Shown one piece after another: positions 13,668-58,957 of a stretch of DNA of 64,000 bases. Each line of letters opens with the position of its first letter. Positions within the stretch are counted from its first letter, which is position 1. The position numbers were made by a program, and so were the translations under genes. The DNA lies in NCBI GenBank assembly GCA_015062385.1, contig SUUT01000002.1:72229-136228 (forward strand), written 5' to 3'. The notes under the pieces were generated by a model, which was given only the letters and a program-made list of their open reading frames with translations, had not been told where the DNA came from and made no database searches. The DNA is from Alphaproteobacteria bacterium (GTDB lineage: Bacteria > Pseudomonadota > Alphaproteobacteria > CAAHEQ01 > UBA3637).

Positions 13668-13826
13668 AGTGTAATAAAAGGTACGTATAATTGCAACATT
13701 TTTTTTCACATTTTTGAATTTTTTTTGATTTTTACTAACTAATTCAATAAAAACAATAATTTTTCATTTTTGAAAAAAGTCGATTTTTGAGATTCGAAGC
13801 GGGAAAAAAAGGTACGTTTTTGTGCA
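13668..13826 (-). promoter_or_regulatory. Putative invertible promoter, copy 1, ON orientation for pilin-avd-TR-RT
   Basis: IR cores AAAAGGTAC (13676-13684) and GTACGTTTT (13812-13820); interior 13685-13811 = 127 bp. Minus strand reads TTGCAA (13696-13691), 17 bp, TACACT (13673-13668). Confidence 0.85.
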
Positions 13827-13923
13827 TATATCGTTTTTAACGGATGATATTTTGATGTTAAAATTATTATGTTATGATGAGATTCTGAGTAAATTTGAAT
13901 ATTGATAACCCTTTGATATCTAT

Positions 13924-14012
13924 GTTAATATGAACTTGTTTCAGATTCTTGGGAAAAACCGGCACAAACGATGTCCCATTATCGTCATGAGACTCCGATT
14001 TTGGGCATGGGA
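13924..14012 (+). repeat. Degenerate remnant of the REP-like repeat unit
   Basis: tgaacttgtttcagatt...cattatcgtcatgagactccgattttgggcatgg resembles the unit at 8973-9753. Confidence 0.65.
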
Positions 14013-14069
14013 TAAAAGAAGAAATACAATAAAGGGGAATGTTTTCTCGCTAAACTGTCAATATACAAC

Positions 14070-14097
14070 AATCCCCCGATTGGGCGGTCGGGGGATT
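14070..14097. terminator. Hairpin terminator after aas
   Basis: AATCCCCCGAT...GTCGGGGGATT. Confidence 0.7.
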
Positions 14098-14102
14098 AAA
14101 TT

Positions 14103-17100
14103 TTATTCGGTTACCAATTTTTTGGCTGTTTGATAATCAAACTTGCCTGTTCCTAACACTGGCGGTTGTTTCATATAAATAACTTTTTTCGGTACCCATA
14201 ATTCAGATAAACCTGTCTTTTTAAAATATGTTTGAATTTCTTTTGTTGATGCATTCTCTGCTGCCGTTACTAAAATCAATTGTTCGCCTTTTTTTGCATC
14301 GGGCAAGGTAATAATACCTTGTGTGATATTCGGATACATTTTTTCCAAAGCTTGTTCAACGGCTGTTAAAGATACCATTTCGCCGGCAATTTTGGCAAAA
14401 CGTTTGGCTCGTCCTTGAATGGAAATAAAATCATTTTCATCCAAAGAAACAATATCCCCTGTATTGTACCAACCATTTTTTGTCGGTTGCAAAACATTTG
14501 GTTTTTCGGCTTTCATATATCCTAACATAACATTATCGCCTTTTACCCACAGTTCACCACCGGTTTCAATACCTTCAATTGGTTTAATTTTCATTTCCAT
14601 CCCCGGTAATAAACGACCAACTGTTCCGTATTTTAGATACATAGGCGTATTTAAAGAAATAACGGGTGCAGTTTCTGTTGCCCCATAGCCTTCCAAAATC
14701 CGAACCCCGAATTTTTTCATCCATAAATCAGCAGTTGTTTCTTTTAGTTTTTCACCACCGACAATCGCATATTTTACACCAAAGAAATCAAACGGATTTG
14801 CCATGCGACCATAGCCGGAAAGGAATGTATCCGTTCCACAAATAATGGTTGCGTTTGAATCGTATGTTAATTCAGGCACAATTCGATAATGCAGTGGGGA
14901 AGGGTAATAAAATGTTCTAATACCCGATAGTGTTGTCATAATAGAACCGACACACAAACCGAAAGAGTGGAACATCGGTAACGCATTGAAAAATGTATCC
15001 GATGCGTTGACGCTTAAAACAGATAAAACCTGATTGCGATTTGCCTGAATGTTTTTGTGTGACAGTAAAACAGCTTTCGGCATTCCTTCTGAACCGGAGG
15101 TAAATAAAACAACTGCCGGTTTCTGCGGGTCGTTTTGCGGACGTGTCTGTATGAAAGCATCCAGTATGCCTTTTAATTTTGATCCCAAAGTGATTTGAGT
15201 AGCAAAATCTTCCATATAAACAACGTTAAATTCGGTTTTTAAGGCTTCTTCTAAATGTTCCAGATGTCCCAGTTGAATGAATTGACGAGAGGTCAGAATT
15301 GTTTTTAATCCGATTGTTTTTCCACTGGAAACAAGTTGTGTCGGTCCCAGTGAAAAGTTCATCATAGCAGGAACTTTGTCAATGCTTTGTAAGGCAAAGA
15401 ATGAAACCAGATTGACCAATGAGTTTGGCAATAATAAACCGATTTTGTCTTCATTCGGAAATGCTTTTTGAAAAGCTCTTCCCAAAACATAAGCCTTTGT
15501 TATCATTTTTTTGTAAGTCAACGGAACACGTTTAATATCTTCGGCAATTTTATGTTTTTTACCATATGTGTGCATGGCATCCAGTAATGAATTAAACAAG
15601 TGTTCATTTAAATCTGATGTTTGATACATCATATCGGTCATAATATCATATAATTGTTTAGAAATAAATGTTCTTCTATCTCGTCCGAAACAATCTTCCG
15701 GCACGTTTAAAACGGTGGGTTTAAGCAAGGTTAACGAAATATGCGGGAACAGACGGGTTTTATATTTTTTACCCATATACGAAAATTTTGAAAATTGAGC
15801 ACCTTTAATCCGAATTGGTACAATTTTGGCTTCGGCTTTGGCGGCAACCACACCGGCCCCCTCATAAATTTTCATTAATCCGCCGGAGGTAGTAATACGT
15901 CCTTCCGGAAAAATCATCACTTTTTTGTCTTTTTTCACTTCTTCAATCAATGACCGAATGGCCATCGGATTGGTCGGATCTAACGGATATAAATCAACCA
16001 GAACGGAAAATAGGCGAATATACCATTTTTTTGCCCATTCTGTATTAATGGCAAATGTGATTTTTTCAGGCATATAAGCAGCAACTAAAATCCCGTCTAA
16101 TAATGAACAATGATTGGCAATTAATAAAACCCGTTTACCGGCTTTGTGGAAATTTTGGATGTTATAAATCCGAATGTGAAAAAGCGGGCTTAATATAATC
16201 CGTAAAACAGATTTTAATGTTTCATGAGACAATAATTGCATAATGTAAACAGAAACAATCAAGCTCATAACGGCAATAAACAGGAAAAGTGAGGGAATGG
16301 AAAAGCCCATACTTAACAAACCGGCTGAAATGATTGAAATAACAGCCATTCCGAACGAATTAACAATATTGTTGCCGGCAATAACAGATGCCGTACAAGA
16401 TTTAGGAGCGTACGTTTGAATAAAAGCATTAAGTGGAACAATATATAATCCACCAAAAAATGCCATAGCAAACATACAAACGGATAACGCAATACCTCCA
16501 TTAAGCAAGAAAGCAACTAATCCGAAACTTTCGCTCGGGGCTTGATAATTTTTGGTTAAGAAATAAAAGATTAATCCGCAAACGGCCATAGCCAAAGATG
16601 TTAATGGAACATAGACGGCAGAAACAACACCTTTCAACAACTTATTGCAACTGACAGACCCGACACCGACTCCGATAGAGAATAATAATAAAAAGAAAGT
16701 AATCACATGTTGTTTGACGTTTAATACCTGACTGCATAGTGGGAAAATTTGAGTTAGGATTAAAGCTCCAACCGTCCAAAACCAAGTTGCTCCTAAAATG
16801 GATTTCCAAACAATGGGATAAGTATGAATAAGTTTTAAATTGCTGACTGTTTCGGCAAAAATATTTTTACGAATCGTTAAGGTTGGACGTGGAGCTTTTG
16901 CCGTTGGAATGTATCGGGCAGAAATGTATCCGATAACCGAACAGATAATTAACAGGACTATTGCAGTATTGATGTTTAAAATCGTGCCTAAAACAGCTCC
17001 TAAAATAATGGAAACATAAGTTGAAGCTTCAATATAACCATTTCCTGCAAGTAATTCATTTTTCTTTAATAATTGTGGTAAAAGAGCGTATTTTATTGGG

Positions 17101-17459
17101 CCAAAAAAGGCAGACTGGGTTCCCATTAAAAAGAGTAAAACAATTAAAAGTGTTAGGCTTTTGGTATAAAAAACAATGCCGGTTAAAATCATTAAAACCA
17201 ATTCAGTAATTTTTAAAAAACGAGCAATTTTATCCCGATTGTATTTATCGGCAATTTGGCCGGCCGTAGCTGAAAATAAAAAGAAGGGCAGAATAAATAA
17301 TCCGGCAACAACAGCCGATAAAATATCGGATTGTTCCGTCATTTTATAGGCAATCATAACCAATAACATATTTTTGAATAAATTATCGTTAAATGCCCCA
17401 AAAAACTGCACAATTAACAAAGGTAAAAAACGTTTTGTTTTTAAAATCGGATTAATCAT
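14103..17459 (-). CDS. aas: MFS (LplT-like) / acyltransferase / acyl-ACP synthetase fusion (Aas-like)
   Basis: N-terminal MFS QFFGAFNDNLFK; NHCSLLD and FPEG acyltransferase motifs; FTSGSEGMPK and EGYGATE AMP-binding motifs. Confidence 0.92.
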   Translation of the reverse strand: MINPILKTKRFLPLLIVQFFGAFNDNLFKNMLLVMIAYKMTEQSDILSAVVAGLFILPFFLFSATAGQIADKYNRDKIARFLKITELVLMILTGIVFYTKSLTLLIVLLFLMGTQSAFFGPIKYALLPQLLKKNELLAGNGYIEASTYVSIILGAVLGTILNINTAIVLLIICSVIGYISARYIPTAKAPRPTLTIRKNIFAETVSNLKLIHTYPIVWKSILGATWFWTVGALILTQIFPLCSQVLNVKQHVITFFLLLFSIGVGVGSVSCNKLLKGVVSAVYVPLTSLAMAVCGLIFYFLTKNYQAPSESFGLVAFLLNGGIALSVCMFAMAFFGGLYIVPLNAFIQTYAPKSCTASVIAGNNIVNSFGMAVISIISAGLLSMGFSIPSLFLFIAVMSLIVSVYIMQLLSHETLKSVLRIILSPLFHIRIYNIQNFHKAGKRVLLIANHCSLLDGILVAAYMPEKITFAINTEWAKKWYIRLFSVLVDLYPLDPTNPMAIRSLIEEVKKDKKVMIFPEGRITTSGGLMKIYEGAGVVAAKAEAKIVPIRIKGAQFSKFSYMGKKYKTRLFPHISLTLLKPTVLNVPEDCFGRDRRTFISKQLYDIMTDMMYQTSDLNEHLFNSLLDAMHTYGKKHKIAEDIKRVPLTYKKMITKAYVLGRAFQKAFPNEDKIGLLLPNSLVNLVSFFALQSIDKVPAMMNFSLGPTQLVSSGKTIGLKTILTSRQFIQLGHLEHLEEALKTEFNVVYMEDFATQITLGSKLKGILDAFIQTRPQNDPQKPAVVLFTSGSEGMPKAVLLSHKNIQANRNQVLSVLSVNASDTFFNALPMFHSFGLCVGSIMTTLSGIRTFYYPSPLHYRIVPELTYDSNATIICGTDTFLSGYGRMANPFDFFGVKYAIVGGEKLKETTADLWMKKFGVRILEGYGATETAPVISLNTPMYLKYGTVGRLLPGMEMKIKPIEGIETGGELWVKGDNVMLGYMKAEKPNVLQPTKNGWYNTGDIVSLDENDFISIQGRAKRFAKIAGEMVSLTAVEQALEKMYPNITQGIITLPDAKKGEQLILVTAAENASTKEIQTYFKKTGLSELWVPKKVIYMKQPPVLGTGKFDYQTAKKLVTE

Positions 17460-17679
17460 ATTGTTTATCTCCTTTTATAACTTAATTTTAAAGTATCATA
17501 GTATGATGATTATAAAAAAGCAAGAAAATATTATTTTTATTGAAAAATTTAAAACTTGTTTCGTTCGGTAAAAAAACTACCTGAAAAAATATATTCAATA
17601 ATTTCTTTTTAAGTGGACAAGTTCAAATGTTTTGTGTATAAGAATGTATTATATTTTTTTGATAGAAAAGGAAGAAAAA

Positions 17680-20600
17680 ATGTCAGATACACCCGTAATG
17701 AAAATGTTAGATGCTAATGAAGCAGCCGCTTTTGTTGCCCATAAATTAAATGAAGTTTCCATTATTTATCCGATTACGCCTTCATCGCCGATGGGCGAAT
17801 GGTCTGATACTTGGTCAACGGCCGGTGTGAAAAATATATGGGGTAAAGTTCCGCAAGTGTTGGAAATGCAATCCGAAGCCGGTGCTATTGGAGCCGTCCA
17901 CGGATCATTACAGGCCGGTTCAATTACTACAACTTATACGGCTTCGCAGGGGTTGTTATTGATGATTCCGAATATGTTTAAAATTGCCGGAGAATTAACC
18001 CCGTTTGTTATGCATGTGGCCGCCCGTACCATTGCAGGGCATGCATTATCTATTTTTGGTGACCATTCAGATGTGATGGCTTGTCGGCAAACAGGGTTTG
18101 CTATGATTGCCTCAAATTCCGTGCAGGAAGCACAAGATATTGCAGTTGTTGCACAAATGTCTACATTCTTATCCCGTATTCCGTTTATTCACTTTTTTGA
18201 CGGGTTTAGAACATCTCATGAAATCAATAAAATTATTCCGATTTCCGATTCGGAATTAAAAACATTAATGACTGATATTCCGACAGATTTTACCGTTAAA
18301 AACGCATTAAAACCCGAAAATCCGAAAATTCGGGGAACGGCTCAAAATCCGGATGTTTTCTTTCAAATTAAAGAGGCTGCTAATAAATATTATAATGCTT
18401 GTCCGTCCTATGTAGAACAGGCTATGCGTCAATTTGAAGCAATAACAGGCAGAGCTTATCATTTAATTGAATACAAGGGTGTTGCTGATGCCGAACATGT
18501 TGTTGTTGCAATCGGTTCAAGTGTTGAAACATTGGAACAAACGGCAGAAGCCTTAAATGCAATGGGTGGTAAATATGGTGTTATTGGGGTTCGATTATAT
18601 CGTCCGTTCCCGAAAGAAGCCTTTATCAATGCTTTGCCGAAAACAGTTAAATATATTTCTGTATTAGATAGAACAAAAGAATCCGGTTCAGTCGGAGAAC
18701 CGTTATATTTAGATGTTGTTTCCACATTGGCCGAAGGAGTTGCAAACGGAACAGTTGCAACAATGCCAAAAATTTTAGGTGGTCGGTATGGATTATCTTC
18801 AAAAGAATTTACGCCGGCTATGGCAAAAGCCGTTTTTGAAAATACACAAAAAGCACATTTTACCGTTGGTATTGATGATGATGTGACGAACTTATCCTTA
18901 TCATATGATTCTGCTTTTGACATTGAAGGAAAAGATGTTTCTCGTTGTGTCTTTATCGGTTTGGGGTCAGACGGAACAGTCGGAGCTAATAAGAACTCTA
19001 TTAAAATTATTGCTGACGGGGAAGATTATTTCGGACAGGCTTATTTTGTGTATGATTCCAAAAAATCAGGTGGAATGACAACATCGCACTTGCGTTTTTC
19101 CAAAAAGCCGATTAAAGCACCATATTTGATTAATCAGGCTGATTTTGTGGCGTGTCATCATATGCCGTTTTTATTTAAAACGGATGTATTATCTTTTGCC
19201 AATAAAAATGCCGTCTTTTTAATTAATTCAACGGAACCGGCCGATAAAGTATGGGATAGTTTGCCGATAGAGGTGCAACAAGAAATTGTTGATAAAAATA
19301 TTAAATTGTATGCGATTGATGCTGTTGATGTGGCTCAAAAAACAGGTATGGGACGGCGAATTAACACCATTATGCAAACTTGTTTCTTTGCCATTTCAGG
19401 GGTTTTGCCTCGGGAAGAAGCTATTGCAAAAATTAAAAAAGCCATTGAAAAAACATATGCCCGTAAAGGACAGGATGTTGTAGATGCGAACATCAAAGCC
19501 GTTGATGCCTCATTAGCTCATTTGCATGAAATTAAAGTCGGAGCTGTTAATTCCGTTCATAAACGGCAAGCCGGTGTACCCTCAACGGCACCGGAATTGA
19601 TTCAAAAAGTAACAGGTAAAATTATTGAAGGTCGGGGCGAACAATTACCGGTCAGTGCTCTTGAATGGACAGCAGACGGTACATGGCCGACTGATACGGC
19701 AAAATATGAAAAACGCCGAATTGCAACAGCCATTCCGGAATGGGATCCAAGTGTTTGTATTCAATGTGGTAAATGTGTTTCCGTTTGTCCGCATGCAGCT
19801 ATTCGGGCAAAAGCCTTTAAAGAAGATGCATTAAAAAATGCTCCTGAAAACTTTAAATATACAGATTACAAGGGTAAAGAATTTGCCGGCGAGAAATTTG
19901 TATTGCAAGTTGCTCCGGAAGATTGTACCGGTTGTACGTTATGTACACAAGCATGTCCGGTTAAAAATAAACTCAATCCGGATAAAAAAGCCATCAATAT
20001 GGTGCCGATTGAAAGTCATTTGGCTGATGATATTAAAAATTTTGATTTCTTTATGTCATTGCCTGATGTTGACAGAACTAAATTATCGCCGAAACAAATT
20101 AAATCTGTTTCGTTAATGCGACCATTGTTTGAATTTTCGGGAGCTTGTGCCGGTTGTGGTGAAACACCGTATGTTAAAATGATGACACAGTTATTCGGGG
20201 ATAGATTGTTGGTTGCTAATGCAACGGGCTGTTCTTCCATTTATAGTGGAAATTTACCGACAACGCCTTATGCTAAAAACAGTGAAGGCTATGGTCCGGC
20301 TTGGGCAAACTCTTTGTTTGAAGATAATGCTGAATTTGGATTGGGTATGCGGACATCTGTTGATTCTAAAACTGATTTTGCGATGCAATTATTAGGTGAA
20401 ATGAGCATGGAAATTGGCGAAGACATTGTTGCTGAAATTGTTAATGCCGAACAGGAAACTGAATCAGATATTCAAGAACAACGCAAACGGATTCAAGCAT
20501 TAAAAGAACAATTAAAAACCATTGACCATCCCAGAGCCAAAATTTTAATTGAAAATGCTGATTATTTGGTTAAAAAATCGGTTTGGATTTTAGGCGGTGA

Positions 20601-21222
20601 CGGTTGGGCTTATGACATCGGATACGGTGGATTGGATCATGTTTTGTATTCCGGCAAAAATGTTAATATTATGGTAATGGATACGGAAGTTTATTCCAAT
20701 ACGGGTGGACAACGGTCCAAAGCAACGCCGATTGGTGCTTCTGCTAAATTTGCTATGGGTGGAAGTGAATTGCCTCGTAAAGATTTAGGTATGATTGCCA
20801 TGTCTTCGGGCGGTGTTTATGTTGCCAGTATTTCATTAGGGGCAAAAGATATGCATGCGTTGCAGGTTATGAATGAAGCTGAAAGTTTTAACGGTCCTTC
20901 TTTAATTATTGCATACAGTCATTGTATTTCACATGGATACGATATTGGTAAATTTGGTTTAGAACATCAAAAATTAGCCGTTGAAACAGGATTGTGGCCG
21001 TTATATCGGTTTGACCCTAGACGGGTAGAGCAGGGATTAAATCCGTTTCAATTAGACAGTAAGCCGACAAAGCCGGTCGCTGAATTTATGGAAACTGAAA
21101 ATCGCTTTAAAGCCGTTCGTCAAAGCAATCCGAAACATTATGAAGAATTGGTACAAAAAGCACAAGCTCAAATTGACCAACGGTTCAAATTATATGAACG
21201 CTTGGCAAAGGGAGATGAATAA
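17680..21222 (+). CDS. nifJ: Pyruvate:ferredoxin (flavodoxin) oxidoreductase
   Basis: IYPITPSSPMGE, GLGSDGTVGANKNS, two CxxCxxCxxxCP, FSGACAGCGETPY, GGDGWAYDIG. Start moved to ATG 17680, after the AAGGAAG RBS. Confidence 0.97.
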   Translation: MSDTPVMKMLDANEAAAFVAHKLNEVSIIYPITPSSPMGEWSDTWSTAGVKNIWGKVPQVLEMQSEAGAIGAVHGSLQAGSITTTYTASQGLLLMIPNMFKIAGELTPFVMHVAARTIAGHALSIFGDHSDVMACRQTGFAMIASNSVQEAQDIAVVAQMSTFLSRIPFIHFFDGFRTSHEINKIIPISDSELKTLMTDIPTDFTVKNALKPENPKIRGTAQNPDVFFQIKEAANKYYNACPSYVEQAMRQFEAITGRAYHLIEYKGVADAEHVVVAIGSSVETLEQTAEALNAMGGKYGVIGVRLYRPFPKEAFINALPKTVKYISVLDRTKESGSVGEPLYLDVVSTLAEGVANGTVATMPKILGGRYGLSSKEFTPAMAKAVFENTQKAHFTVGIDDDVTNLSLSYDSAFDIEGKDVSRCVFIGLGSDGTVGANKNSIKIIADGEDYFGQAYFVYDSKKSGGMTTSHLRFSKKPIKAPYLINQADFVACHHMPFLFKTDVLSFANKNAVFLINSTEPADKVWDSLPIEVQQEIVDKNIKLYAIDAVDVAQKTGMGRRINTIMQTCFFAISGVLPREEAIAKIKKAIEKTYARKGQDVVDANIKAVDASLAHLHEIKVGAVNSVHKRQAGVPSTAPELIQKVTGKIIEGRGEQLPVSALEWTADGTWPTDTAKYEKRRIATAIPEWDPSVCIQCGKCVSVCPHAAIRAKAFKEDALKNAPENFKYTDYKGKEFAGEKFVLQVAPEDCTGCTLCTQACPVKNKLNPDKKAINMVPIESHLADDIKNFDFFMSLPDVDRTKLSPKQIKSVSLMRPLFEFSGACAGCGETPYVKMMTQLFGDRLLVANATGCSSIYSGNLPTTPYAKNSEGYGPAWANSLFEDNAEFGLGMRTSVDSKTDFAMQLLGEMSMEIGEDIVAEIVNAEQETESDIQEQRKRIQALKEQLKTIDHPRAKILIENADYLVKKSVWILGGDGWAYDIGYGGLDHVLYSGKNVNIMVMDTEVYSNTGGQRSKATPIGASAKFAMGGSELPRKDLGMIAMSSGGVYVASISLGAKDMHALQVMNEAESFNGPSLIIAYSHCISHGYDIGKFGLEHQKLAVETGLWPLYRFDPRRVEQGLNPFQLDSKPTKPVAEFMETENRFKAVRQSNPKHYEELVQKAQAQIDQRFKLYERLAKGDE

Positions 21223-21250
21223 TTTTACAGTGTTTTTAATTGTTTTGAAG

Positions 21251-21279
21251 ATTACCGCCTCTATTTTAGGGGCGGTAAT
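21251..21279 (+). terminator. Terminator hairpin after nifJ
   Basis: ATTACCGCCTCTA-ttt-TAGGGGCGGTAAT. Confidence 0.7.
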
Positions 21280-21391
21280 TGTATGAAAATGATAAAATAA
21301 AAAAAACATCCGAAACGAATCAATTTTTTGAATTTTTATATAAATTTTAAATTGATTCGTTTTTGTTTTATATGGTTTTACTATAAGTTTG

Positions 21392-21552
21392 ACTATAAAA
21401 AAAGGTACGTTAAAACGCAACATTTTTTTCACTTTTTGAGATTTTTTTTTAATTTGAAATAAATTATTATTTTAAAAGGATTTTAGTTTATTTTTATAAA
21501 TCAACGTGTTTTGCAAAAAGCATCTGCAAAAAAAGATACCTTTTTTTATACT
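21392..21552. promoter_or_regulatory. Putative invertible promoter, copy 2, pointing away from the autotransporter (OFF)
   Basis: Perfect 14-bp IR TATAAAAAAAGGTA (21394-21407) / TACCTTTTTTTATA (21537-21550). Interior homologous to copy 1 (127 bp, 21409-21535). Inversion gives TTGCGT-17-TATACT on the + strand. Confidence 0.8.
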
Positions 21553-21701
21553 GTCTTTTGTTAAATGAGTACAGAAGCATAAGATGTTATGTTTGAAAAA
21601 CCAAAAGGGCGGGAGTAGTATGAAAATAAAAAAAATAACACATTGAAAATAAATATTTTTTTCAGCATATTAAAATATGTCATAAAAATGCAAAATAATG
21701 G

Positions 21702-21730
21702 TTGACATTTTAAATAGGATTTAATAGGCT
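21702..21730 (+). promoter_or_regulatory. Additional sigma70-like promoter for the autotransporter
   Basis: TTGACA (21702-21707), 17 bp, TAGGCT (21725-21730). Confidence 0.5.
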
Positions 21731-21794
21731 GAAAGAAGCTTCTTCTATGAAGTGAGGAACTTATGATTAATTTTTTAACTAGAGTGAGGTATTT

Positions 21795-24245
21795 ATGAGG
21801 TATTCAAATACAGCAATTACAGAACTTTCAAAAAAATATCGTACAATTTTGAAAAAATGTGCCATTTTAAATGCAGTTGCATTATTGGCTTTATCCACAC
21901 CGGCTATGGCAGCTCAATATGGTATTGCCGTGACAGAAAGTAGAGTATACACAGAATCTGCTTTTACAGGTGATGATGTTGGTATTTATTCGGGTAGTGG
22001 TGCAACTGGTACATTTACAGCCGAAGATATTACTGTTACAGACAGTTTAAGAGGGATTCTTGCAAAAGGAACAGAATCAAAAATTGTTATTGGTAGTGCA
22101 AGTGATTATACCAATAGTTTAACCATTTCTAATAACAATACAGAATCCGGAATTCATGATCGAGGTATTCGTGCCGAAAATGGTGGAACAGTTGAAGTTT
22201 ATACGGATAATTTAACAATTACCGGTACAGATACCTCTTATGCATTACATGCAAGAGGTGGGGACGATTCTTTAACAACAAAAATTGTAGTGAATGCTAA
22301 AAATGTAGATATTACAAGCAAAGATTCTCCAGCAGTTAATGCAAATAATACAGGAATCAGACCGGAAGAAACTTATGCAACAACACAAGTTGATATTGTA
22401 GCAGATAATATTAATATTTCTTCTGATACAACGGCAGTTTCTGCTATGAGCCAAGGAATTGTTAATATTACGGGTAACACAGTTTTAAATGCTGAAAACG
22501 CTATTTTAGGTCGTGGTGATGCACAAATTAACATTAACACAACCGACTTGACTAAAACGTTGGTAATGAATGGTAATATTGATTTTGATTATGATAAAAA
22601 AACATCAGACTCTGCTATTAATGCTTTCATTAATGTTAATTTGAATGGTACTTCTTCTTCATGGACGGGAAATACTGTTAAAAGTTGGGGTGATGATGAA
22701 CCAGAAGATCCTAATAAGTTAATTGTTTCTGATGCAACAGTTACACTTAATGACGGGGCAACTTGGAATGCAACAAAAATTACAGCAACTGATACAATGA
22801 AACAAACCGCATTAAACTACTTAATTGTTAAAAAAGGTACAATTAATGTTGCAGACGGGGCCACTGCTTTGGTTGGCGATTTAACGGTAACGGACTTAAC
22901 GTTAAATGGTATGGTTGAAGCTGATACAGCTACATTTGAATCCGGTTCAAAATTAACAACTGCTTTGGATGATACTGTTAAAATTAAAGCTAAAAAAGTT
23001 ACAATTGGTGATGGTTCCACATTGAACTTAATCATTGATGGTGCCGTTGAAGAAAAATCATATAACTTTATTGATTCCGCAGATATTACAGGAGCCTTTA
23101 CAATTGCTGATAACGGTTTATATTCTTTCACACAAGATGAAACTGGTACTATTACGGCAAGTCAGAAAAATGCTGATGAAATTGCAGCAGATACAGGGGC
23201 TTCTGCTCAGGAAACAAGTGCTTTATTAGCAATGATTAATGCGGATGGATCAAGTACGGAACAAGGTAATGCATTAGCTTCTGCTTTGTCAACGGCAATG
23301 CAATCCGGTGATGCAGCAGTTGCTGTTCAGGCTGCAAAAGAAGCTGCTCCGACAACAGCACAAGTTGTGACAGGTTTAACCAAAGAAACTGCCAATACAA
23401 TTGCACAAGTTTCTACGACTCGTTTAGATTCTATTAAAGGAACAAGCGGTGGTGATACGGTAACAGGGGCCGGTTTGTGGGTTCAAGGATTATATAACCA
23501 TACAAAACAAAGCACAACATCTTCATCTGATGGATTCAAAGCAAATTCACGTGGTTTGGCTGTTGGTGCCGATGCAGAATTATCCGAAACAACAACGTTA
23601 GGTTTGGGGTATGGTTATATGGAAACAGATGCTGATACTACCGGTCGTGATATTACAGTTGATAGTCATAATGTTTTTGTTTACGGAGAATATCAACCGT
23701 CTGAATGGTATGTTAATGCTGTTTTAAATTATGGGTTCTCTAAATACAAGGAAGATAAGGCTCCATTGGGTGTTGCATTAAAGAGCAAGTATGATGTTAA
23801 ATCATATGGAGCAAGCATTATGACCGGTTATGATTTTGATAACGGTATTACACCGGAAGCAGGCTTGCGTTATTTGATTGTTGATGCTGAATCATACAAT
23901 GATGGTGCACAAGACATTAATTCTAAAAAGAATGATATCTTAACAGCCGTTGCCGGTGTTAAATATACAGCTAATGTCAAAGCTGACAAAGCAATTTTAA
24001 AACCGACTGTTCGTTTAGCCGCAACATACGACATTGTTTCTGATAGTGATGAAGCAAGTGTTCAAGTTTTGGGTGGTGGTAATTATACCATTAACGGACA
24101 GCGTTTACATCGCTTTGGTGTAGAAGCCGGAGCAGGTGTGACAGCAACTGTTAACAACTGGGATTTCACATTAGAATATAACGGTGCTTTCAGAGAAGAT
24201 TATCGCTCACAAGGGGGTATCGTCAGAGCAAGATACAATTTCTAA
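21795..24245 (+). CDS. Autotransporter (type Va) with beta-helical passenger
   Basis: Extended signal peptide; Thr/Asn/Gly-rich passenger; C-terminal barrel starting LWVQGLYNH and ending GIVRARYNF. Confidence 0.92.
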   Translation: MRYSNTAITELSKKYRTILKKCAILNAVALLALSTPAMAAQYGIAVTESRVYTESAFTGDDVGIYSGSGATGTFTAEDITVTDSLRGILAKGTESKIVIGSASDYTNSLTISNNNTESGIHDRGIRAENGGTVEVYTDNLTITGTDTSYALHARGGDDSLTTKIVVNAKNVDITSKDSPAVNANNTGIRPEETYATTQVDIVADNINISSDTTAVSAMSQGIVNITGNTVLNAENAILGRGDAQININTTDLTKTLVMNGNIDFDYDKKTSDSAINAFINVNLNGTSSSWTGNTVKSWGDDEPEDPNKLIVSDATVTLNDGATWNATKITATDTMKQTALNYLIVKKGTINVADGATALVGDLTVTDLTLNGMVEADTATFESGSKLTTALDDTVKIKAKKVTIGDGSTLNLIIDGAVEEKSYNFIDSADITGAFTIADNGLYSFTQDETGTITASQKNADEIAADTGASAQETSALLAMINADGSSTEQGNALASALSTAMQSGDAAVAVQAAKEAAPTTAQVVTGLTKETANTIAQVSTTRLDSIKGTSGGDTVTGAGLWVQGLYNHTKQSTTSSSDGFKANSRGLAVGADAELSETTTLGLGYGYMETDADTTGRDITVDSHNVFVYGEYQPSEWYVNAVLNYGFSKYKEDKAPLGVALKSKYDVKSYGASIMTGYDFDNGITPEAGLRYLIVDAESYNDGAQDINSKKNDILTAVAGVKYTANVKADKAILKPTVRLAATYDIVSDSDEASVQVLGGGNYTINGQRLHRFGVEAGAGVTATVNNWDFTLEYNGAFREDYRSQGGIVRARYNF

Positions 24246-24267
24246 TTGTGTAATTTAATTGGCTAAA

Positions 24268-24305
24268 AAAACCGAGTTGTCAATTTTTATTGAGAACTCG
24301 GTTTT
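24268..24305 (+). terminator. Terminator hairpin after the autotransporter
   Basis: AAAACCGAGTT...AACTCGGTTTT. Confidence 0.7.
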
Positions 24306-24635
24306 CATATTGATTTAGTACAGATAACCCTCATTTTAATTGAGATTGAGTTATTCTGAGGTTAATGTTAAATAGTAGGGTATGGAATGACATGGGAATA
24401 CTTATTTTAGAATGCTATTAATCTGATAAACGCTGTTTAAAAACATGTCATTTAAAAACAATAAGTTTTAACGTTAAAGAGTAATAATATCCCATATAAC
24501 AGAGAAAACGGATTTTTTTGACAAAGTTAAAGTCTTTGCCTAATTTTTTACTATATTTTTTTGTTTTATTGAAAAAAAATATTTGACAATAAGCTGTTTT
24601 TATATTATAATAAAAAAATATAAAGGGGATATATT

Positions 24636-25580
24636 ATGTATCGATATGATTCAAATAATCAAACAAAAATACCTGATTTAACAGATACTGAAAGTATTGT
24701 TAAAGGATTAGAAAAAGCTGTTTCGGATTATAAAGAAGCAGTTGAGCATGAGCATAAAAAATTCTTAAAATATGATCAAGAGGGTTTAGGAATTGGTCCG
24801 ACTAATACACCCCTACCAACATCAAAAACACCGACAAAGGAAGATGTTTTTAAAGATGTAGTGGTTCATTTTCATCAAAAAGAGGGCTTGGATGCTATTG
24901 ATGAACTACTGTCTTCTCGTAAAATCGAAACGGTTTCTAACTCAAATGGTTTTTGGACTAAAAGCGGAGTCTATTTAATTGTTGATGAAAAAATAACTTA
25001 CAACACGAAAGGGATAGATGTTTCTTTAATTACCCAAGGACGTGTTCATAATAAAGACGGCATTAATCCTTATACTGTCTTAGGACCGGATGCAAATGGC
25101 ATTGGTGCCTCTGTTTATAAGACACTTGCCAGTGGTATAAATAATAATCAATATGACAGCCAAACGACAACGGCTCTCAATGTTTCCTGCGGAAATTACG
25201 GGGTAACGATGGGAGAATGGTATCAATTTGGACCAAGATTAAGTCAAGAAACACAAAAGGGAGTAAAATTTCAATACGGGGATGAAGACGAAGCAAGAGC
25301 TTTAACAATAGGAAACGGTCTTATGGCAGAATATCGTCAAAAAGCAACCAGTGCTTCAAATTTTATATGGACAGCTTCACATAGTCATAGAGTTTTAACA
25401 ATGATGATAGGTGTTGATGCACGAGTATCTGATTATAAATTAGGTGCTGTTGTCGGTATTAATTCTAAAGGGAAAGGTAGTGTTTCGGCCGTTTTGAGAA
25501 ATAATTCAACGGAAGTATCCGCCAGCCTGGATACAGAGGGACATTATGAAGTGAGAGCTGGTTTTTTAATGACTTACTAA
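24636..25580 (+). CDS. Hypothetical protein with beta-strand-rich C-terminal half
   Basis: 314-aa ORF with RBS and upstream TTGACA/TATAAT-like boxes; alternating hydrophobic strands ending ...YEVRAGFLMTY. Confidence 0.75.
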   Translation: MYRYDSNNQTKIPDLTDTESIVKGLEKAVSDYKEAVEHEHKKFLKYDQEGLGIGPTNTPLPTSKTPTKEDVFKDVVVHFHQKEGLDAIDELLSSRKIETVSNSNGFWTKSGVYLIVDEKITYNTKGIDVSLITQGRVHNKDGINPYTVLGPDANGIGASVYKTLASGINNNQYDSQTTTALNVSCGNYGVTMGEWYQFGPRLSQETQKGVKFQYGDEDEARALTIGNGLMAEYRQKATSASNFIWTASHSHRVLTMMIGVDARVSDYKLGAVVGINSKGKGSVSAVLRNNSTEVSASLDTEGHYEVRAGFLMTY

Positions 25581-26170
25581 AATTTTTTTATACTGTTTTT
25601 CTTAAAGATTCAATATATTTTAATCCGGAAAATTTTTTCTATACTTGGCAATTTTTATACTTTTTGTTCTGTTATTGATAATACAGTTTTAAATGCTGAA
25701 AAGGGAAACCGTTAACATTGACTTTATCAGATTGATAAATTACTCAACTTTCTTTTAAAGTGGCATATGCATTTTTTAACTCATCAATATTCAAATCTTT
25801 TCTGTTTATTTAAAGCCTTTCTTTTTTTACGATAATATAAGAAAAATAGAAACTTAACTTAAATTTTTATTGAATTTTCTTCCAAAAATTACTTGCTACT
25901 ATTTTTATTTCTTGATCCAATTCATATCTATTAGAGGAACTATTCATTATTATAAATTCTAAACGGATCAGAAACCAATTAATTACGGATAAGTAAAAGG
26001 TAACAATGTCCAACAAATCCATTCGGATAAAATGGTATAAAAGTCTTATAGATAGAGTAGGGGTTAAATGTCTTCTACGGGCAAAGTGACGTGCAACTGT
26101 GATAGGAAGCAGAAAATCGGGAAAAACAAGCAATAAAAAATCCCCTATAACCAAAAGGTTAAGGGGATAA

Positions 26171-26260
26171 TGGCGGATGGGGTGAGATTCGAACTCACGG
26201 TGGAGTTACCCCCACGCCGGTTTTCAAGACCGGAGCCTTAAACCACTCGACCACCCATCC
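26171..26260 (-). tRNA. tRNA-Ser(UGA)
   Basis: GGATGGGTGGTCGAGTGG...CCGGT-CTTGAAA-ACCGG, long variable arm, GTTCGAATC, ends CCA. Confidence 0.96.
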
Positions 26261-26369
26261 ACTGGTTTTTTTAGGCTGAAATCTTTATGACATAAAAAAA
26301 ATAAAAAATCAAGTGCTTTTTTTAAAAAAATGTATTATAGTTATTAAAAATGTTTATGAAAGGGAGATT

Positions 26370-27608: not shown

Positions 27609-27611
27609 AAT

Positions 27612-28601
27612 ATGTATTTGAAAAAAATATTATGTTTATCCTGTGCTTTTTGTCTTTTCGGATGTTCCGATAATGGTTTTTTATTTCGGTCTGTCGGCAG
27701 TTATAATCAATCAAAATCTGTCGGAACTTATCTTGTAGGGGCTCCATATGAGATAAATGGTGTTGTTTACACGCCCAAAGAAGATTATGATTATTTTGAT
27801 AGTGGAGATGCATTTTGGTATAGTGAAGATAAAAATCATCCGTTAACGGCAAACGGTGAAATATATGATAAAAATAAAATGACGGCAATGCATAAAACAT
27901 TGCCTTTACCGTCCATTGTGAAAATTACAAACTTAAATAATCAGATGTCTGCCTTTGTTCGGGTAAATGATCGAGGTCCTTTTGATAATAATCGCATTAT
28001 GGATGTTTCGGAAGCAACAGCCCGTTATTTGAATTTTTCAAAAACAAAGGTAACACCGATTCAGATTGAAATAATGGTTTTGGAAAGTCAAAAATTAAAA
28101 GAACAATTAAATAAAACACATTTTAATCGAATCCTTTCGCTTACTGATACTTCTCAAAAAGAAACTTCAACAAAAATAACACAAGGCGAAACCATTTTGG
28201 ATTCTGATAAAATTTTATATCCGGGTTTAAAACAGGAAAAGATTGAAAATTTAAAATTAAAACAGATGGATAAAGATGCTTCTTCATTTAAAACATTATT
28301 GAATAAACAAACGTTATCTGATACGCTTATTCAACCCGAGAAGAATGCGGTATTATATGCCGGTTCCGGTAAAGAAGGGTATTATGTTCAAATCGGTGCG
28401 TTTTCAAAAGAGAAATCTGTTCATAAAATCCGCCAAAAATTAAAAGCATACGATAATTTAAAAGTAAAAGATAAGTATAAGAACGGGCAATTATTGCACT
28501 ATGTGCGAATCGGACCGCTTGAAACACAAAATAAGGCATTAAAGATACTTGACAAAATCCATAATGAAGGGTATGCTGATGCAACGATTATTTTTGAATA
28601 G
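27612..28601 (+). CDS. rlpA: Septal ring lytic transglycosylase RlpA with SPOR domain
   Basis: Lipobox LFGC; TANGE, TAMHKTLPLPS, VNDRGPF; C-terminal YYVQIGAF SPOR. Confidence 0.93.
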   Translation: MYLKKILCLSCAFCLFGCSDNGFLFRSVGSYNQSKSVGTYLVGAPYEINGVVYTPKEDYDYFDSGDAFWYSEDKNHPLTANGEIYDKNKMTAMHKTLPLPSIVKITNLNNQMSAFVRVNDRGPFDNNRIMDVSEATARYLNFSKTKVTPIQIEIMVLESQKLKEQLNKTHFNRILSLTDTSQKETSTKITQGETILDSDKILYPGLKQEKIENLKLKQMDKDASSFKTLLNKQTLSDTLIQPEKNAVLYAGSGKEGYYVQIGAFSKEKSVHKIRQKLKAYDNLKVKDKYKNGQLLHYVRIGPLETQNKALKILDKIHNEGYADATIIFE

Positions 28602-34175: not shown

Positions 34176-36389
34176 TTAATCTATAACACAAAGTGCAGGA
34201 TAGGAATTTGTCGTATAAGTACCATCTATATTGCCGAATTCCAGTCCTACCTGATATACTTCGCAAGATGTATATACTTTATCAAGCCAGTAAAAATCAT
34301 CTCCAACTTTACCAAAGGCTTCCCATAATCCGGTTACAATTTTTGATATATTATCCTTAACATATGCGTTTGATCCAATTGCTTTATAATGACAATATCC
34401 CCATCGACCTAACCCGTCCATGCAATGCATATCATTTGAACCGGCAACTCGTCCGCCAATAGCTTCACAAAAACGATTAGCACTCCACCAAGTCATTTCT
34501 AAATTTGGAGTTCCATAAAAAGTTTTTGTTCCCGTCACTTCTCTGCCATAACCGTCATAGTGGGTCCAGTTGATAGTTGCTTGAATTGCATCATCTTTTG
34601 CTACACGACAAATTCCCGTATCAATAAAAGGTCCTTCAAATTCTATACCACAAGCATATCCCTTCTTTTGATAGCAATAATATCCGTATTTTCCGTCTTT
34701 GTTACAATCGGCATTTGTTGTGCAATATTCAACACATTCTTTTCCATTCCAACGTGTTCCGTCCAAGCAAGGTACACACACATTCATTTTTAAATCACAG
34801 GTTGGTTTTGTTTCATCTATACAATGAGTATTATTTAAGCATTCGGAACACAAACCCGTATCGGCACAATATAAACCCATATCACAATCATCATTTGTTT
34901 CACAAGATGAACAAGTTCCGTTTTTACAAATATTTTTACCAATTATTTCAGTGCAATCATCATGAGATAAACACAATACTTGTTCTTCAGGTTCAATCCC
35001 TTCAATAATCGCATCATCAACACATAAAGCATAATATCCCTCTTCCAGAATTTCTCCATCTATATTTCCGTATTCCAAACCGATACCATATCCGGAACAC
35101 TCATCAATAATATTAGAAAACCAATACCAACCACCATTTAATGCGGTTTTTAATTTTGTTACAACTGTTGAAATATTACCATCTTGCCAAGCATTTGATC
35201 CGATATATTTTTTATGACAATAGCCCCAACTTCCCACATTATCTGCACATTGAAAATCTGTTGTGGTCACTTGTCTTTTTCCAATGCTTTTACAAAAACG
35301 ATTGGCACTATGCCAAGTCATTTCTAACTCCGGAACGGCATAAAAATTTGTTGTTCCATATGTTATTAAGCCTTTTGAGTCTGTTTTGTTCCATTTAACA
35401 GTTACTTTTTTCATATCATCTTCTGCAAAATGGCATTCTCCTTTATCTTCACGAGGTCCATAAAATTCATATCCGGAACAAGCATATCCTAGTGCATTAT
35501 AACAGTAATAACCTGTTCTGCCGTTTTTGTTACACTCCTCATTTGTTTTGCAAGGTAAAACACACCGTTTTCCATTCCATTTTTCTCCATTCGGACAAGG
35601 TTCACACGTACTTGTTTTTGTATCGCAATAAGGTTTAGAGGCATCTTTACAATCTGCATAACTTTGACACTCTACACATCCTTCCGCTGTTTCAATAGGT
35701 GTTTGACGTGGACATTGACATATGTTATCAATCCATTCTTTGGGCGGATAACACCACTCACAATTGTCCCCAAATTCATATTCATGCCGACAAACACATC
35801 CGTATGTCCCATCATCTTTTTGTCGCCATGCCATTTTGTCCGGACAAGATTGTGGTTCACTGCTTGGATTGTCATCCGGCATATCCGAACCACCGCTTCC
35901 GCCATTTCCACCACTACTTCCCCCATCAAAGTGAGAACCGGATTCAACAGTCGGAGTTGCATTAAAGGAAAACACCATATTTGTTTTGCTGTTTGGGTTT
36001 CCGCACATTCTTGTTAAAATAGAAATACCCATCTCATTTAAAATGCTTTCTCTTTGCAGGAGTTTTTCACAAACTTTATAAACCACTTTAAATGCTGTTA
36101 CTTGATAATTACCATCAACGAGCTTGACCATAGATTTTTTATCATCCGGTGTATATTCAGGTAGGGCAGATTTTAAAAACCGATTAACCTCCAATGCATG
36201 AGAAGCCCGAGAATCCGTTTGAGCCAATGTTTTAGCCTTGCCAAGAACATCTTGAATTTTACCGGATTGATAGGCTGTTAAGGCATATTGATACATACCG
36301 ACACCGGCAACGGACAAAACGCCGATAATTGCCAATACACCTAGCATTTCTACCATACTCCGACCGGTTTCATTGATTTTGATTTGCAT
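34176..36389 (-). CDS. Type IV pilin-like N-terminus, Cys-rich stalk, two tandem C-type-lectin-like domains
   Basis: TG|RSMVEMLGVLAIIGVLSV; duplicated module with EMTW(H/W)SANRFC...Y(Y/P)ALCV resembling the DGR target. Confidence 0.85.
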   Translation of the reverse strand: MQIKINETGRSMVEMLGVLAIIGVLSVAGVGMYQYALTAYQSGKIQDVLGKAKTLAQTDSRASHALEVNRFLKSALPEYTPDDKKSMVKLVDGNYQVTAFKVVYKVCEKLLQRESILNEMGISILTRMCGNPNSKTNMVFSFNATPTVESGSHFDGGSSGGNGGSGGSDMPDDNPSSEPQSCPDKMAWRQKDDGTYGCVCRHEYEFGDNCEWCYPPKEWIDNICQCPRQTPIETAEGCVECQSYADCKDASKPYCDTKTSTCEPCPNGEKWNGKRCVLPCKTNEECNKNGRTGYYCYNALGYACSGYEFYGPREDKGECHFAEDDMKKVTVKWNKTDSKGLITYGTTNFYAVPELEMTWHSANRFCKSIGKRQVTTTDFQCADNVGSWGYCHKKYIGSNAWQDGNISTVVTKLKTALNGGWYWFSNIIDECSGYGIGLEYGNIDGEILEEGYYALCVDDAIIEGIEPEEQVLCLSHDDCTEIIGKNICKNGTCSSCETNDDCDMGLYCADTGLCSECLNNTHCIDETKPTCDLKMNVCVPCLDGTRWNGKECVEYCTTNADCNKDGKYGYYCYQKKGYACGIEFEGPFIDTGICRVAKDDAIQATINWTHYDGYGREVTGTKTFYGTPNLEMTWWSANRFCEAIGGRVAGSNDMHCMDGLGRWGYCHYKAIGSNAYVKDNISKIVTGLWEAFGKVGDDFYWLDKVYTSCEVYQVGLEFGNIDGTYTTNSYPALCVID

Positions 36390-36427: not shown

Positions 36428-36586
36428 AGTATAAAAAAAGGGACCTTTTTTTCCCGCTTCGAATCGGCAAAATCGGATTTTGTAAAAAATAAAAGATTAT
36501 TGTTTGAGTTGAATAAGTTATCTAAAATCAAAAAAAATGCCAAAATGTGAAAAAAAGTGTTGCATTTATACGTCCCTTTTATTGCA
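36428..36586. promoter_or_regulatory. Putative invertible promoter, copy 3 (OFF)
   Basis: IR AAAAGGGAC (36436-36444) / GTCCCTTTT (36572-36580). Interior 36445-36571 = 127 bp, the reverse-complement homolog of copy 1. Inversion gives TTGCAT-17-TATACT toward the pilin gene. Confidence 0.87.
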
Positions 36587-57305: not shown

Positions 57306-57322
57306 TCAGATTTTAATTATAA

Positions 57323-57360
57323 TAAAACGGTGAGAGACAAAGAGTCAATCACCGTTTTTT
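57323..57360. terminator. Bidirectional terminator between valS and the pilin-like gene
   Basis: AAAACGGTGA...TCACCGTTTT. Confidence 0.7.
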
Positions 57361-57376
57361 ATTGAAAACAAATACC

Positions 57377-58762
57377 CTACTCTGTTAAGCAATAATCCAC
57401 AACCTTATGAAGTTTAAAATTCATACTGCCGCAGTTATTATCACATTCATTATCCCAAAATTGAATGGTTATATCTGCCAAGCCATTAAATGTAAAATAT
57501 TTAATCGGTTGATTTCTTAATGCATTTGTTACTTGTTTAGTTGTTCCAACATTATATCCCTCACCATTTCCCACAAAATCAGAATCTTTATTAATAATAT
57601 ATCCTAAATTTTTTGTACCCTCAAATACATATGTTGCAAAACCGACCCGCTTCGTCTTACAATTATAATAATGGTATCCATCAACCCATTCAAAATAATA
57701 TGTCCCTTTTAGTTTACCTAAGTTATTTGTTGTAATACGGCACTCCCAAACAGAACTATTAATTCCGGTTGAAGCAATATCCATTTCAACCACATCTTCT
57801 GTTTTACAAACACATTCGCCATTTTGATTGGGTTCTAATTCATATTTTGATGTATCACAATAACACACACATGTTTCCCCATCCTGAATCTGTCCCGTTG
57901 GACAAGATGTTGCACACGGCGTACACATTTTTGTTATTGCATCCCAATGTATTTTATCTGTCGGACAAGATTCACACATATTGTTTGTTCCGCATACCGG
58001 AGTCGGATTAGCACAATCATCATTCGTTAAGCATTCCACACACTTTTCATCTTTCCAAATCGGAGAGAAATCCGGACAGCGACACATTACTTCATCTTCA
58101 AACCATTCTTTGGGAGGATAACATCGTTCACAATTATCCCCGAACTCATATTCATGCCGACAAATACATCCGTATGTACCGTCTTCTTTTTGTCGCCATA
58201 CCATTTTATCGGGGCAGGTTTCCGGTTCAATATTTGGATTATCTATATCCGGCAGATTCGAACTCCCGCTTCCGCTATTTCCGCCCCCATTTCCTCCGCC
58301 AAAGTGAGAACCGGATTCAAATGTCGGTGTTGCATCAAAGGAAAATACCATGCTTGTTTTATTGTTTGGGTTTCCACACGTTTTTGTTAAAATTGAAATA
58401 CCCATATCATTCAATATACCTTCCTTTTGAAAGAGCTTTTCACAAATTTTATGTGTCATCTTAAATGCCGTTACCTGATAATTGCCGTCAACCAATTTAA
58501 CCATAGACTTTTTATCATCCGGCGTATATTCGGAAAGTGCTGACTTAATAAATCGATTGACTTCTAAGGCATGTGAAGCCCGAGAATCTGTTTGTGCCAA
58601 TGTTTTGGCTTTTCCGAGAACATCCTGCACTTTGCCGGCTTGATAAGCCGTTAACGCATATTGATAGGTTGCAACACCCCCAACGGATAATACCCCGATA
58701 ATTGCCAGAACCCCCAGCATTTCCACCATTGAACGACCAAGTTCATTTATTTTAGTTTGCAT
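57377..58762 (-). CDS. Type IV pilin-like N-terminus, Cys-rich stalk, distinct C-terminal domain
   Basis: LG|RSMVEMLGVLAIIGVLSVGG; first ~220 aa highly similar to the 34176-36389 protein, C-terminus unrelated. Confidence 0.85.
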   Translation of the reverse strand: MQTKINELGRSMVEMLGVLAIIGVLSVGGVATYQYALTAYQAGKVQDVLGKAKTLAQTDSRASHALEVNRFIKSALSEYTPDDKKSMVKLVDGNYQVTAFKMTHKICEKLFQKEGILNDMGISILTKTCGNPNNKTSMVFSFDATPTFESGSHFGGGNGGGNSGSGSSNLPDIDNPNIEPETCPDKMVWRQKEDGTYGCICRHEYEFGDNCERCYPPKEWFEDEVMCRCPDFSPIWKDEKCVECLTNDDCANPTPVCGTNNMCESCPTDKIHWDAITKMCTPCATSCPTGQIQDGETCVCYCDTSKYELEPNQNGECVCKTEDVVEMDIASTGINSSVWECRITTNNLGKLKGTYYFEWVDGYHYYNCKTKRVGFATYVFEGTKNLGYIINKDSDFVGNGEGYNVGTTKQVTNALRNQPIKYFTFNGLADITIQFWDNECDNNCGSMNFKLHKVVDYCLTE

Positions 58763-58798
58763 ATTTTCCTCACATCATAAAGTTGCATTTATGAAATG

Positions 58799-58957
58799 AT
58801 TATAAAAAAAGGGACCTTTTTTTCCCTATTCAAAATAGAAAAATCTGATTTTTACAGAAATGAAAGATTATTGTTTTAATTTAATAAGTTAATTAAAATC
58901 AAAAAAAATGCTAAAAAGTGAAAAAAATTGTTGCATTTATACGTCCCTTTTATTGCA
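58799..58957. promoter_or_regulatory. Putative invertible promoter, copy 4 (OFF)
   Basis: IR AAAAGGGAC (58807-58815) / GTCCCTTTT (58943-58951). Interior 58816-58942 = 127 bp. Inversion gives TTGCAT-17-TATAAT toward the pilin gene. Confidence 0.87.

Follow-up and report, generated by a model that had tools for sequence, protein, structure and literature searches.

The stretch of DNA analysed here, called the window throughout (64,000 nucleotides, G000:C9:72229-136228), carries four copies of a short cassette bounded by inverted repeats (IRs), each placed upstream of a gene for a prepilin-like protein or an autotransporter. These cassettes, which are candidate invertible promoters, are the subject of this report. 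The host is an uncultured gut alphaproteobacterium represented by a metagenome-assembled genome (MAG). The window's own genome (G000) amounts to 1.81 Mb in 45 contigs, with about 35% G+C and 99% completeness. Its nearest public genomes are Alphaproteobacteria MAGs from animal and human guts (PFOR identity of 87% and 75%), and the sequencing runs that contain window DNA are faecal or gut metagenomes. For comparison, we used a sister species (G016) and a genus set of 21 genomes. The features at the four copies are as follows (window positions; protein lengths in amino acids, aa).

13676..13820, minus strand: copy 1 cassette, equal to G000 C9:85904
13668..13673, minus strand: fixed -10-like hexamer TACACT of copy 1, outside the cassette and 17 bp from the -35-like hexamer, read directly
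11854..13635, minus strand: 593-aa prepilin-like gene downstream of copy 1; prepilin-peptidase-dependent pilin (NCBIfam), E 0.0064
21394..21550, plus strand: copy 2 cassette, diverged (69-76% identical to the other copies) and matched only in part by BLAST
21547..21552, plus strand: fixed -10-like hexamer TATACT of copy 2, read directly
21795..24245, plus strand: 816-aa autotransporter gene downstream of copy 2; PF03797, E 3.1e-41
36436..36580, minus strand: copy 3 cassette, from direct reading and BLAST
36428..36433, minus strand: fixed -10-like hexamer TATACT of copy 3, read directly
34176..36389, minus strand: 737-aa prepilin-like gene downstream of copy 3
58807..58951, minus strand: copy 4 cassette, from direct reading
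58799..58804, minus strand: fixed -10-like hexamer TATAAT of copy 4, read directly
57377..58762, minus strand: 461-aa prepilin-like gene downstream of copy 4

An earlier, sequence-only reading of this DNA had placed four segments here, each with a 127-bp interior between inverted cores, and direct reading agrees. In copy 1, the cores are AAAAGGTAC (13676-13684) and GTACGTTTT (13812-13820), which differ by one mismatch and enclose an interior at 13685-13811. Copy 2 has a 14-bp IR, TATAAAAAAAGGTA, at 21394-21407, with its complement at 21537-21550. Copy 3 pairs AAAAGGGAC (36436-36444) with GTCCCTTTT (36572-36580) around 127 bp at 36445-36571, and the cores of copy 4 (58807-58815 and 58943-58951) enclose 127 bp at 58816-58942. 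Each interior contains a -35-like hexamer. That of copy 1 (TTGCAA, 13691-13696) faces the gene, and those of copy 2 (TTGCGT, 21415-21420), copy 3 (TTGCAT, 36560-36565) and copy 4 (TTGCAT, 58931-58936) are directed away from it. Of the four downstream genes, only that of copy 2 is on the plus strand; the other three are on the minus strand.

The -35 and -10 hexamers had been named correctly, and in all four copies only one orientation brings them to a spacing of 17 bp. When each is viewed from its gene, copy 1 reads as copies 3 and 4 do in reverse complement; the leaders remain collinear, again as first described. By the orientation logic of a split promoter, the calling of copy 1 as ON and of copies 2-4 as OFF stands. 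The term ‘adhesin’ for the controlled genes was a guess: the gene products are prepilin-like proteins and one autotransporter.

A family of more than 100 cassettes

The window contains exactly four cassettes, the number from which the family had originally been described, but the genome contains many more. We defined the cassette family by a BLAST search of G000 with the copy-3 cassette as query, which returned 114 matches: 109 of at least 100 bp and five that are partial or diverged, including copy 2. The 109 cassettes are spread over 44 contigs, and 103 copies are complete (that is, both ends lie inside a contig). Of these complete copies, 89 have the same IR 9-mer at either end. The core has a variable central base (pairs G/G, T/T or A/A), which agrees between the two ends in 102 of the 103, although these are not 102 independent events because the copies are kin. 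Judged by this agreement, the IR ends appear to behave as functional pairs. Family size and IR pairing together put the cassette pattern far beyond chance.

When copies are oriented by their interior, nearly all show the same two flanks. On one side lies a semi-conserved ‘far’ flank with the consensus TatCTGtAAA, and on the other a conserved leader, followed by a Shine-Dalgarno sequence and an ATG 40-48 nucleotides (nt) away. The -35-like hexamer stands at the far-flank end of the cassette, pointing outward after an A-rich tract, and reads TTGCAT in 81, TTGCAA in 26 and TTGCTT in one of the 108 readable copies. If the interior is flipped, a TAnnnT hexamer of the leader comes to lie precisely 17 bp away in 95 of 104 copies (leader hexamers: TACACT 44, TATAAT 26, TATACT 18, and others). 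On the side currently faced by the -35, TAnnnT is present in only 8 of 108 copies, and a gene leader is found on that side in six of them. Opposite the -35, the far flank has a hexamer resembling TGCAGA or TACAGA that lacks the final T, and the far-side site in G000 is symmetric (TGCA...TGCA). As a sequence pattern, the split promoter first proposed for the window, with a mobile -35 and a fixed -10, is therefore borne out across the family (TTGCAT or TTGCAA in 107/108 copies, with the TAnnnT leader frequency just given).

In the consensus assembly, about six switches are ON and about 95 are OFF. Four of the ON copies have a prepilin-like open reading frame (ORF) and all four carry TACACT: C6:4860, C9:85904 (copy 1 of the window), C13:34507 and C26:97180. 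The others are C4:7335, where the contig ends within the ORF, and C33:29302, which precedes a 510-aa ORF that is not pilin-like. In addition, the AA/TT dinucleotides of the interior show a power peak at 10.5 bp (1.61 versus 0.22 for shuffled sequences), a hint of intrinsic bending; other peaks are present too, and the copies are kin.

Cassettes also mark places where assemblies break. Many G000 contigs (C2, C12, C13, C19, C26, C36, C40 and others) stop within a cassette or at the conserved start of a pilin-like gene, and Logan contigs likewise break at window 13580-13602. The prepilin-like/cassette family is a main cause of assembly fragmentation. Further afield, an exact 24-nt cassette pattern had no match in the genome contig collection, and a scan of JGI (Joint Genome Institute) metagenomes with the copy-3 protein gave a single short locus (L124) with a truncated cassette.

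Inversion and the candidate invertase

That the IR-flanked segments invert, as the sequence-only reading had supposed, is seen between species, where both orientations occur at one locus. In the orthologous pair G000 C9:34215-34480 and G016 L117:2215-2468, far flank and leader alike align collinearly, and the interior can be aligned over 127/127 bases, with 92% identity, only as the reverse complement. A reverse-complemented interior between collinear flanks shows that the segments invert. At this locus, G016 reads TTGCAA-17-TATACT (ON) and G000 is OFF; the IR core is GGGAC/GTCCC in G000 versus GGTAC/GTACC in G016, so both ends have changed together. The G016 family comprises 27 scored matches, 86-91% identical. 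Three more of its elements (L109:7999, L119 and L123) are inverted with respect to the G000 element that shares an orthologous far flank, and about 13 have the same orientation as their G000 counterpart. We infer that switching goes on within populations.

Some G016 cassettes are arranged in other ways. The L123 cassette (G016:C241:1-4800) has far flanks on both sides, orthologous to those of G000 C35:16029 and C42:28232, and in the L119 and L109 cassettes a far flank known from one G000 locus is combined with a gene known from a different one. These arrangements reflect either recombination between cassettes, which would make large inversions, or chimeric assembly.

Orientation within samples was compared through the Logan contigs of four sequencing runs across window 12501-32500. 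Two of these runs are source-like (X1 and X5), and X8 represents a related strain, with 0.71 of sampled words present. Here no mixed orientation was seen: X1, X5 and X8 show only the reference orientation at copies 1 and 2, no strand-change joint occurs among the 15 of 39 joints listed for the Logan contigs, and the reference orientation of the related strain indicates that the majority state at these two copies is stable across strains. In the fourth run, X14, neither copy is spanned by a long contig. Since contigs drop rare variants, this result neither supports nor refutes switching.

The shared orientation of copies 1 and 2 in the source-like runs and the related strain would also suit a different explanation. 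That is, the cassettes may be fixed repeats, either similar to miniature inverted-repeat transposable elements (MITEs) or Correia elements or derived from a duplicated promoter module, which rare old events have reoriented and which take no part in programmed phase variation at present. Terminal IRs and a high copy number are indeed MITE-like. Yet a target-site duplication of at least 3 nt is found in 0 or 1 of 103 copies at most settings; one setting (4 nt, boundary shifted out by 2 nt) gives direct repeats in 7/103. The lack of target-site duplications, together with the conserved flanks on both sides, argues against the insertion of a mobile repeat either way round. Fixed repeats also fit poorly with the strong orientation bias relative to the gene (about 95 to 6), with an orthologous-locus inversion that is exact, IR-bounded and accompanied by a core change at both ends, with the covariation of the central base in nearly every complete copy, and with a dedicated invertase family kept throughout the genus. 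Moreover, homologous recombination is inefficient between repeats of only 9 bp. We consider this explanation improbable, and the MITE reading was rejected for want of target-site duplications and given that both flanks have a consensus.

A trans-acting recombinase had been expected to be encoded elsewhere, and the genome holds a candidate. The window's contig gave no recombinase match, and contig C26 encodes one intact Mpi-like serine invertase (G000:C26:78020-78772, 250 aa). This protein matches NF009949 (‘master DNA invertase Mpi family serine-type recombinase’) with E 4.7e-81 over positions 1-194 of 203, and its match to PF00239, the serine-recombinase catalytic core, scores 107.1 bits. The best solved relative is the Gin invertase 4m6f, which aligns over residues 1-190 and places YIRVSS opposite YVRVST. 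The gene adjoins the dnaA end and an hsp20 gene, in a core chromosomal neighbourhood and outside any mobile element. It is the single intact copy in G000, where two further copies contain stop codons. Homologs are found in 21/21 genomes of the genus (1-12 matches each), and orthologs 72-78% identical occur in G031, G015, G017, G014 and G010, all of which have recognisable cassette relatives. This co-occurrence is weak evidence, as close kin share both. With one intact copy against 109 cassettes, this Mpi-like invertase would most likely act in trans on all of them. Three observations count against the assignment: the NF009949 score of 271.3 bits lies 0.7 below the curated cut-off of 272, the protein carries an extra C-terminal tail of about 55 aa, and in G016, which has the same element family, the ortholog was found only as a 41-aa fragment with 76% identity.

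Overall, G000 contains five Resolvase-family and six Phage_integrase-family recombinase matches, and it is conceivable, if very improbable, that another of these enzymes flips the cassettes. Two FimB-sized tyrosine recombinases of about 195 aa (C12:71102-71698 and C12:131553-132134) each lie 2-3 kb from a C12 cassette, and both weakly match NF007370, ‘tyrosine-type DNA invertase’ (45.7 and 38.6 bits, with a cut-off of 221). However, they are patchy, occurring in 5/21 and 6/21 genus genomes at E <= 1e-10, and were not found in G016, G014, G015 and G017, four carriers of the element or its relatives, which makes them unlikely as the invertase. There is no evident invertible region around them. 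Serine candidates are C26:27368-28111 and C26:42618-43223, but for the serine recombinases apart from the Mpi-like one, the best scores are to IS607-type or large serine recombinases. Copies of the two small tyrosine enzymes in other species (G031 and G005) are 99% and 96% identical, as for mobile DNA, which suggests a recently moving element.

The proposed split promoter and its mechanism

The TTGCAW and TAnnnT hexamers would together form a promoter, a reading drawn from the conservation and spacing of the two motifs. Diverged families in other genomes show comparable patterns. In G010 and G014, the repeat is 21 bp long and TTGCAT-17-TACATT arises only after flipping. In G031, there are 43 matches to the promoter end of the cassette, and one locus that was read is ON, with TTGCAA-17-TACAAT.

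The leaders have a feature of their own. Across the family (e.g. window 36390-36435 and 58763-58806, both minus strand), the leader forms a hairpin whose 5' arm starts from the last bases of the -10 and whose 3' arm extends into the Shine-Dalgarno sequence. The arms vary between subfamilies yet remain complementary. The mean minimum free energy of the hairpin is -7.47 versus -3.50 for shuffled sequences, with z < -2 in 32/59 unique leaders. When the leader is folded from the presumed transcription start, no structure forms; the hairpin could mask the ribosome site only in read-through transcripts.

A number of findings speak against a split promoter. TTGCAA-17-TACACT scores 8/12 against the E. 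coli consensus, a consensus promoter scan fails to call the proposed promoters, and none of the runs containing the window stretch is recorded as RNA. At this G031 locus (L150, G031:C44, 1497-1660), the IR is about 22 bp long and TTGCAA stands at both cassette ends, so only the upstream A-tract differs between orientations there. Five of the six -35 bases in G010 fall within the 21-bp IR. TTGCA may be conserved partly as a recombination site or recombinase half-site, which the symmetric far-side site in G000 would also suit; this is the chief reservation about the promoter reading. Taken further, this gives an account in which the cassettes invert with no split -35/-10 at all: TTGCA(T/A) would be mainly a recombinase half-site, and orientation would take effect in some other way, such as an UP element formed by the A-tract, blocked read-through or a promoter recognised by a different sigma factor. 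The silent promoter scan and the leader hairpin, which hints at a further layer of control, suit this account as well. It has more difficulty with G000 itself, where TTGCA(T/A) stands at only one cassette end, the leader TAnnnT lies at exactly 17 bp in the great majority of copies, the far-side hexamer is T[GA]CAGA-like without a final T, and TACACT is found at 17 bp in all four ON copies with a pilin-like ORF. We hold it to be unlikely, if the least unlikely of the alternatives considered.

Taken together, the evidence makes it likely that the segments form a regulon of more than 100 one-gene-one-switch invertible split promoters, probably flipped by one Mpi-family invertase. In such a regulon, each cassette of about 145 bp would consist of the 127-bp interior and 9-bp inverted cores that sit inside longer sites of about 26 bp. 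The invertase would bind both sites, cut within the 9-bp cores (the exact crossover position is not placed) and rotate the interior, and helically phased T-tracts may help so short a segment to loop, for which the indication is weak. The -35 and its A-tract would travel with the interior, with the -10, the 5' leader and the gene remaining fixed outside and the IR supplying 9 of the 17 spacer bases. With a mobile -35 and a fixed -10, a flip would either complete the promoter (ON) or bring CGGGAA, the hexamer that occupies the -35 position in the OFF orientation, into its place (OFF).

If this is true, the cell would command a very large on/off repertoire of surface proteins. The split promoter would also illustrate how a 127-bp segment can yield clean ON/OFF states, and would offer a compact part.

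Presumed target genes, known systems and a neighbouring retroelement

What the switches would control is, for the most part, one protein family. An ORF of at least 60 aa with the motif G[RH]S[ML].E in its first 45 residues lies on the leader side in 75 of the 109 cassettes and on the promoter side in 4; the remaining 30 have no such ORF, a short ORF or a contig end. Counted by ORF, the prepilin-like motif occurs in 79 of 124 flanking ORFs. The N-terminus, M..K.NE.GRSMVE[MI]LGVLAIIGVL, is invariant across 14 aligned paralogs; next come a conserved domain (about 145 aa), a Gly/Ser linker and Cys-rich modules. The proteins range from about 350 to 3850 aa, and the 3850-aa member is encoded at G000:C12:46563-58115.

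The N-terminus looks like a class III (prepilin) signal, to which family models give weak scores: the Pfam N_methyl match has an E of 0.29-0.68, the NCBIfam pilin match is that listed for the gene behind copy 1, and the R at residue +1 is unusual. In the Atlas, the closest clusters that carry a name are PilS, Bundlin and N_methyl (0.93-0.94), a lead only. An AlphaFold2 model of residues 1-300, built with 14 paralogs, has a mean predicted local distance difference test score (pLDDT) of 56.6; residues 1-86 fall below 50, so that the pilin part failed. The Cys-rich modules in the middle of these proteins are modelled with high confidence; in the copy-4 protein, residues 200-280 reach a pLDDT of 75-93. 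G000 encodes a prepilin peptidase (PF01478, C3:29636), a T2SSE ATPase (PF00437, C8:27273) and a secretin (PF00263, C8:23404). Other presumed targets of the cassettes are the autotransporter behind copy 2, two ankyrin-repeat proteins and a paralog of the lectin-like target of the retroelement described below. A modular prepilin-like family of this size suggests that much of the genome is given over to surface filaments or adhesins that can be varied, perhaps as a defence against phages or the host immune system.

In gut Bacteroides, a master invertase that flips promoters is the textbook route to surface variation. The invertible promoters of Bacteroides lie wholly inside the segment, whereas in the system described here the -10 lies outside it. 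This system resembles that of Bacteroides fragilis Mpi in its small serine invertase, here a candidate that matches the same NCBIfam family and whose gene stands apart from its presumed targets, and in the many short IR-flanked promoters, dispersed over the chromosome of a gut commensal, that would switch surface structures. They differ in host (Alphaproteobacteria, not Bacteroidota), in targets (prepilin-like proteins, not polysaccharide loci) and in the invertase, which here has the C-terminal tail and the score just under the cut-off. They also differ in scale: PMC4747536, citing Coyne 2003, gives 13 regions inverted by Mpi, including seven capsular-polysaccharide promoters, and on that figure there are about eight times more sites here (103-109 versus 13). 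The same enzyme family would thus be at work in an unrelated, uncultured lineage with a small genome, on some eightfold the Bacteroides targets.

The inversion enzymes of Mycoplasma penetrans are tyrosine recombinases, unlike the candidate serine invertase here. Its mpl (P35) lipoproteins offer a parallel in layout, namely one gene and one switch across a large paralogous surface family with a combinatorial ON/OFF display. They number 38 genes, each with its own promoter inversion, according to the review PMC10502178 (citing Horino 2003), which puts the membership here about three times higher, in a Gram-negative gut commensal and a different protein family.

As in E. coli fimS (FimB/FimE) and Salmonella Hin/hix, the orientation of an IR-bounded promoter would decide the expression of a surface-appendage gene, and the invertase is a distant relative of the Gin/Hin group. 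The fimS and Hin/hix switches are single-locus systems with the whole promoter inside a segment of 314 bp or about 1 kb; the cassettes here have a 127-bp interior, a split promoter, more than 100 loci and an enzyme presumed to act in trans.

From the known systems, the present one differs in lineage, scale, split promoter and targets. A literature search found no description of this alphaproteobacterial system, though the supplementary catalogues of the DeepInverton paper (PMC11602134) could still list it. PMC11868660 reports 4686 invertons found by PhaseFinder in 54,875 genomes, against which about 100 in one 1.8-Mb genome would be extreme. Families of this kind break short-read assemblies and escape isolate-based inverton surveys.

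Beside copy 1 lies a complete diversity-generating retroelement (DGR) at window 8363-13635. Its parts, which include a variable region (VR), a template region (TR) and a reverse transcriptase (RT), are as follows.

8363-8731, plus strand: DGR target, a 122-aa secreted lectin-like protein, with the VR at ~8634-8762
9912-11225, minus strand: DGR RT
~11240-11337, minus strand: DGR TR
11459-11872, minus strand: bAvd

Every difference between TR and VR falls at a TR adenine. The 593-aa pilin-like gene was ruled out as the DGR target, as the VR is located at the end of a different, small gene (8363-8731). Because the avd gene and the 593-aa gene share 19 nt, transcription of avd-TR-RT may likewise start from the ON promoter of copy 1. 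If copy 1 does drive a pilin-avd-TR-RT operon, diversity-generating retro-mutagenesis would itself be phase-variable. In its boldest form, the proposal would be that this is the largest inverton regulon yet (about one switch per 17 kb) under one Mpi-type invertase, with an OFF state doubly insulated by the leader hairpin and a DGR made phase-variable through copy 1. We put this forward only tentatively and regard the combination as rather doubtful.

Between the VR and the RT gene (window 8966-9901) lie four tandem units of about 199 bp, each with a small hairpin motif and a G-run. An Rfam search of window 8000-22000, these units included, gave no match. Pieces related to the unit occur in the far flank of copy 1 (~13930-13960) and on C33, C40, C10, C6 and C36. 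More VR-like copies of the DGR template are found at G000:C6:5335-5465, C10:1-90 and C36:29418-29828. One of these, which includes a run of N, is next to the ON cassette C6:4860, and directly behind the cassette at C36:29274 lies a paralog of the DGR target gene.

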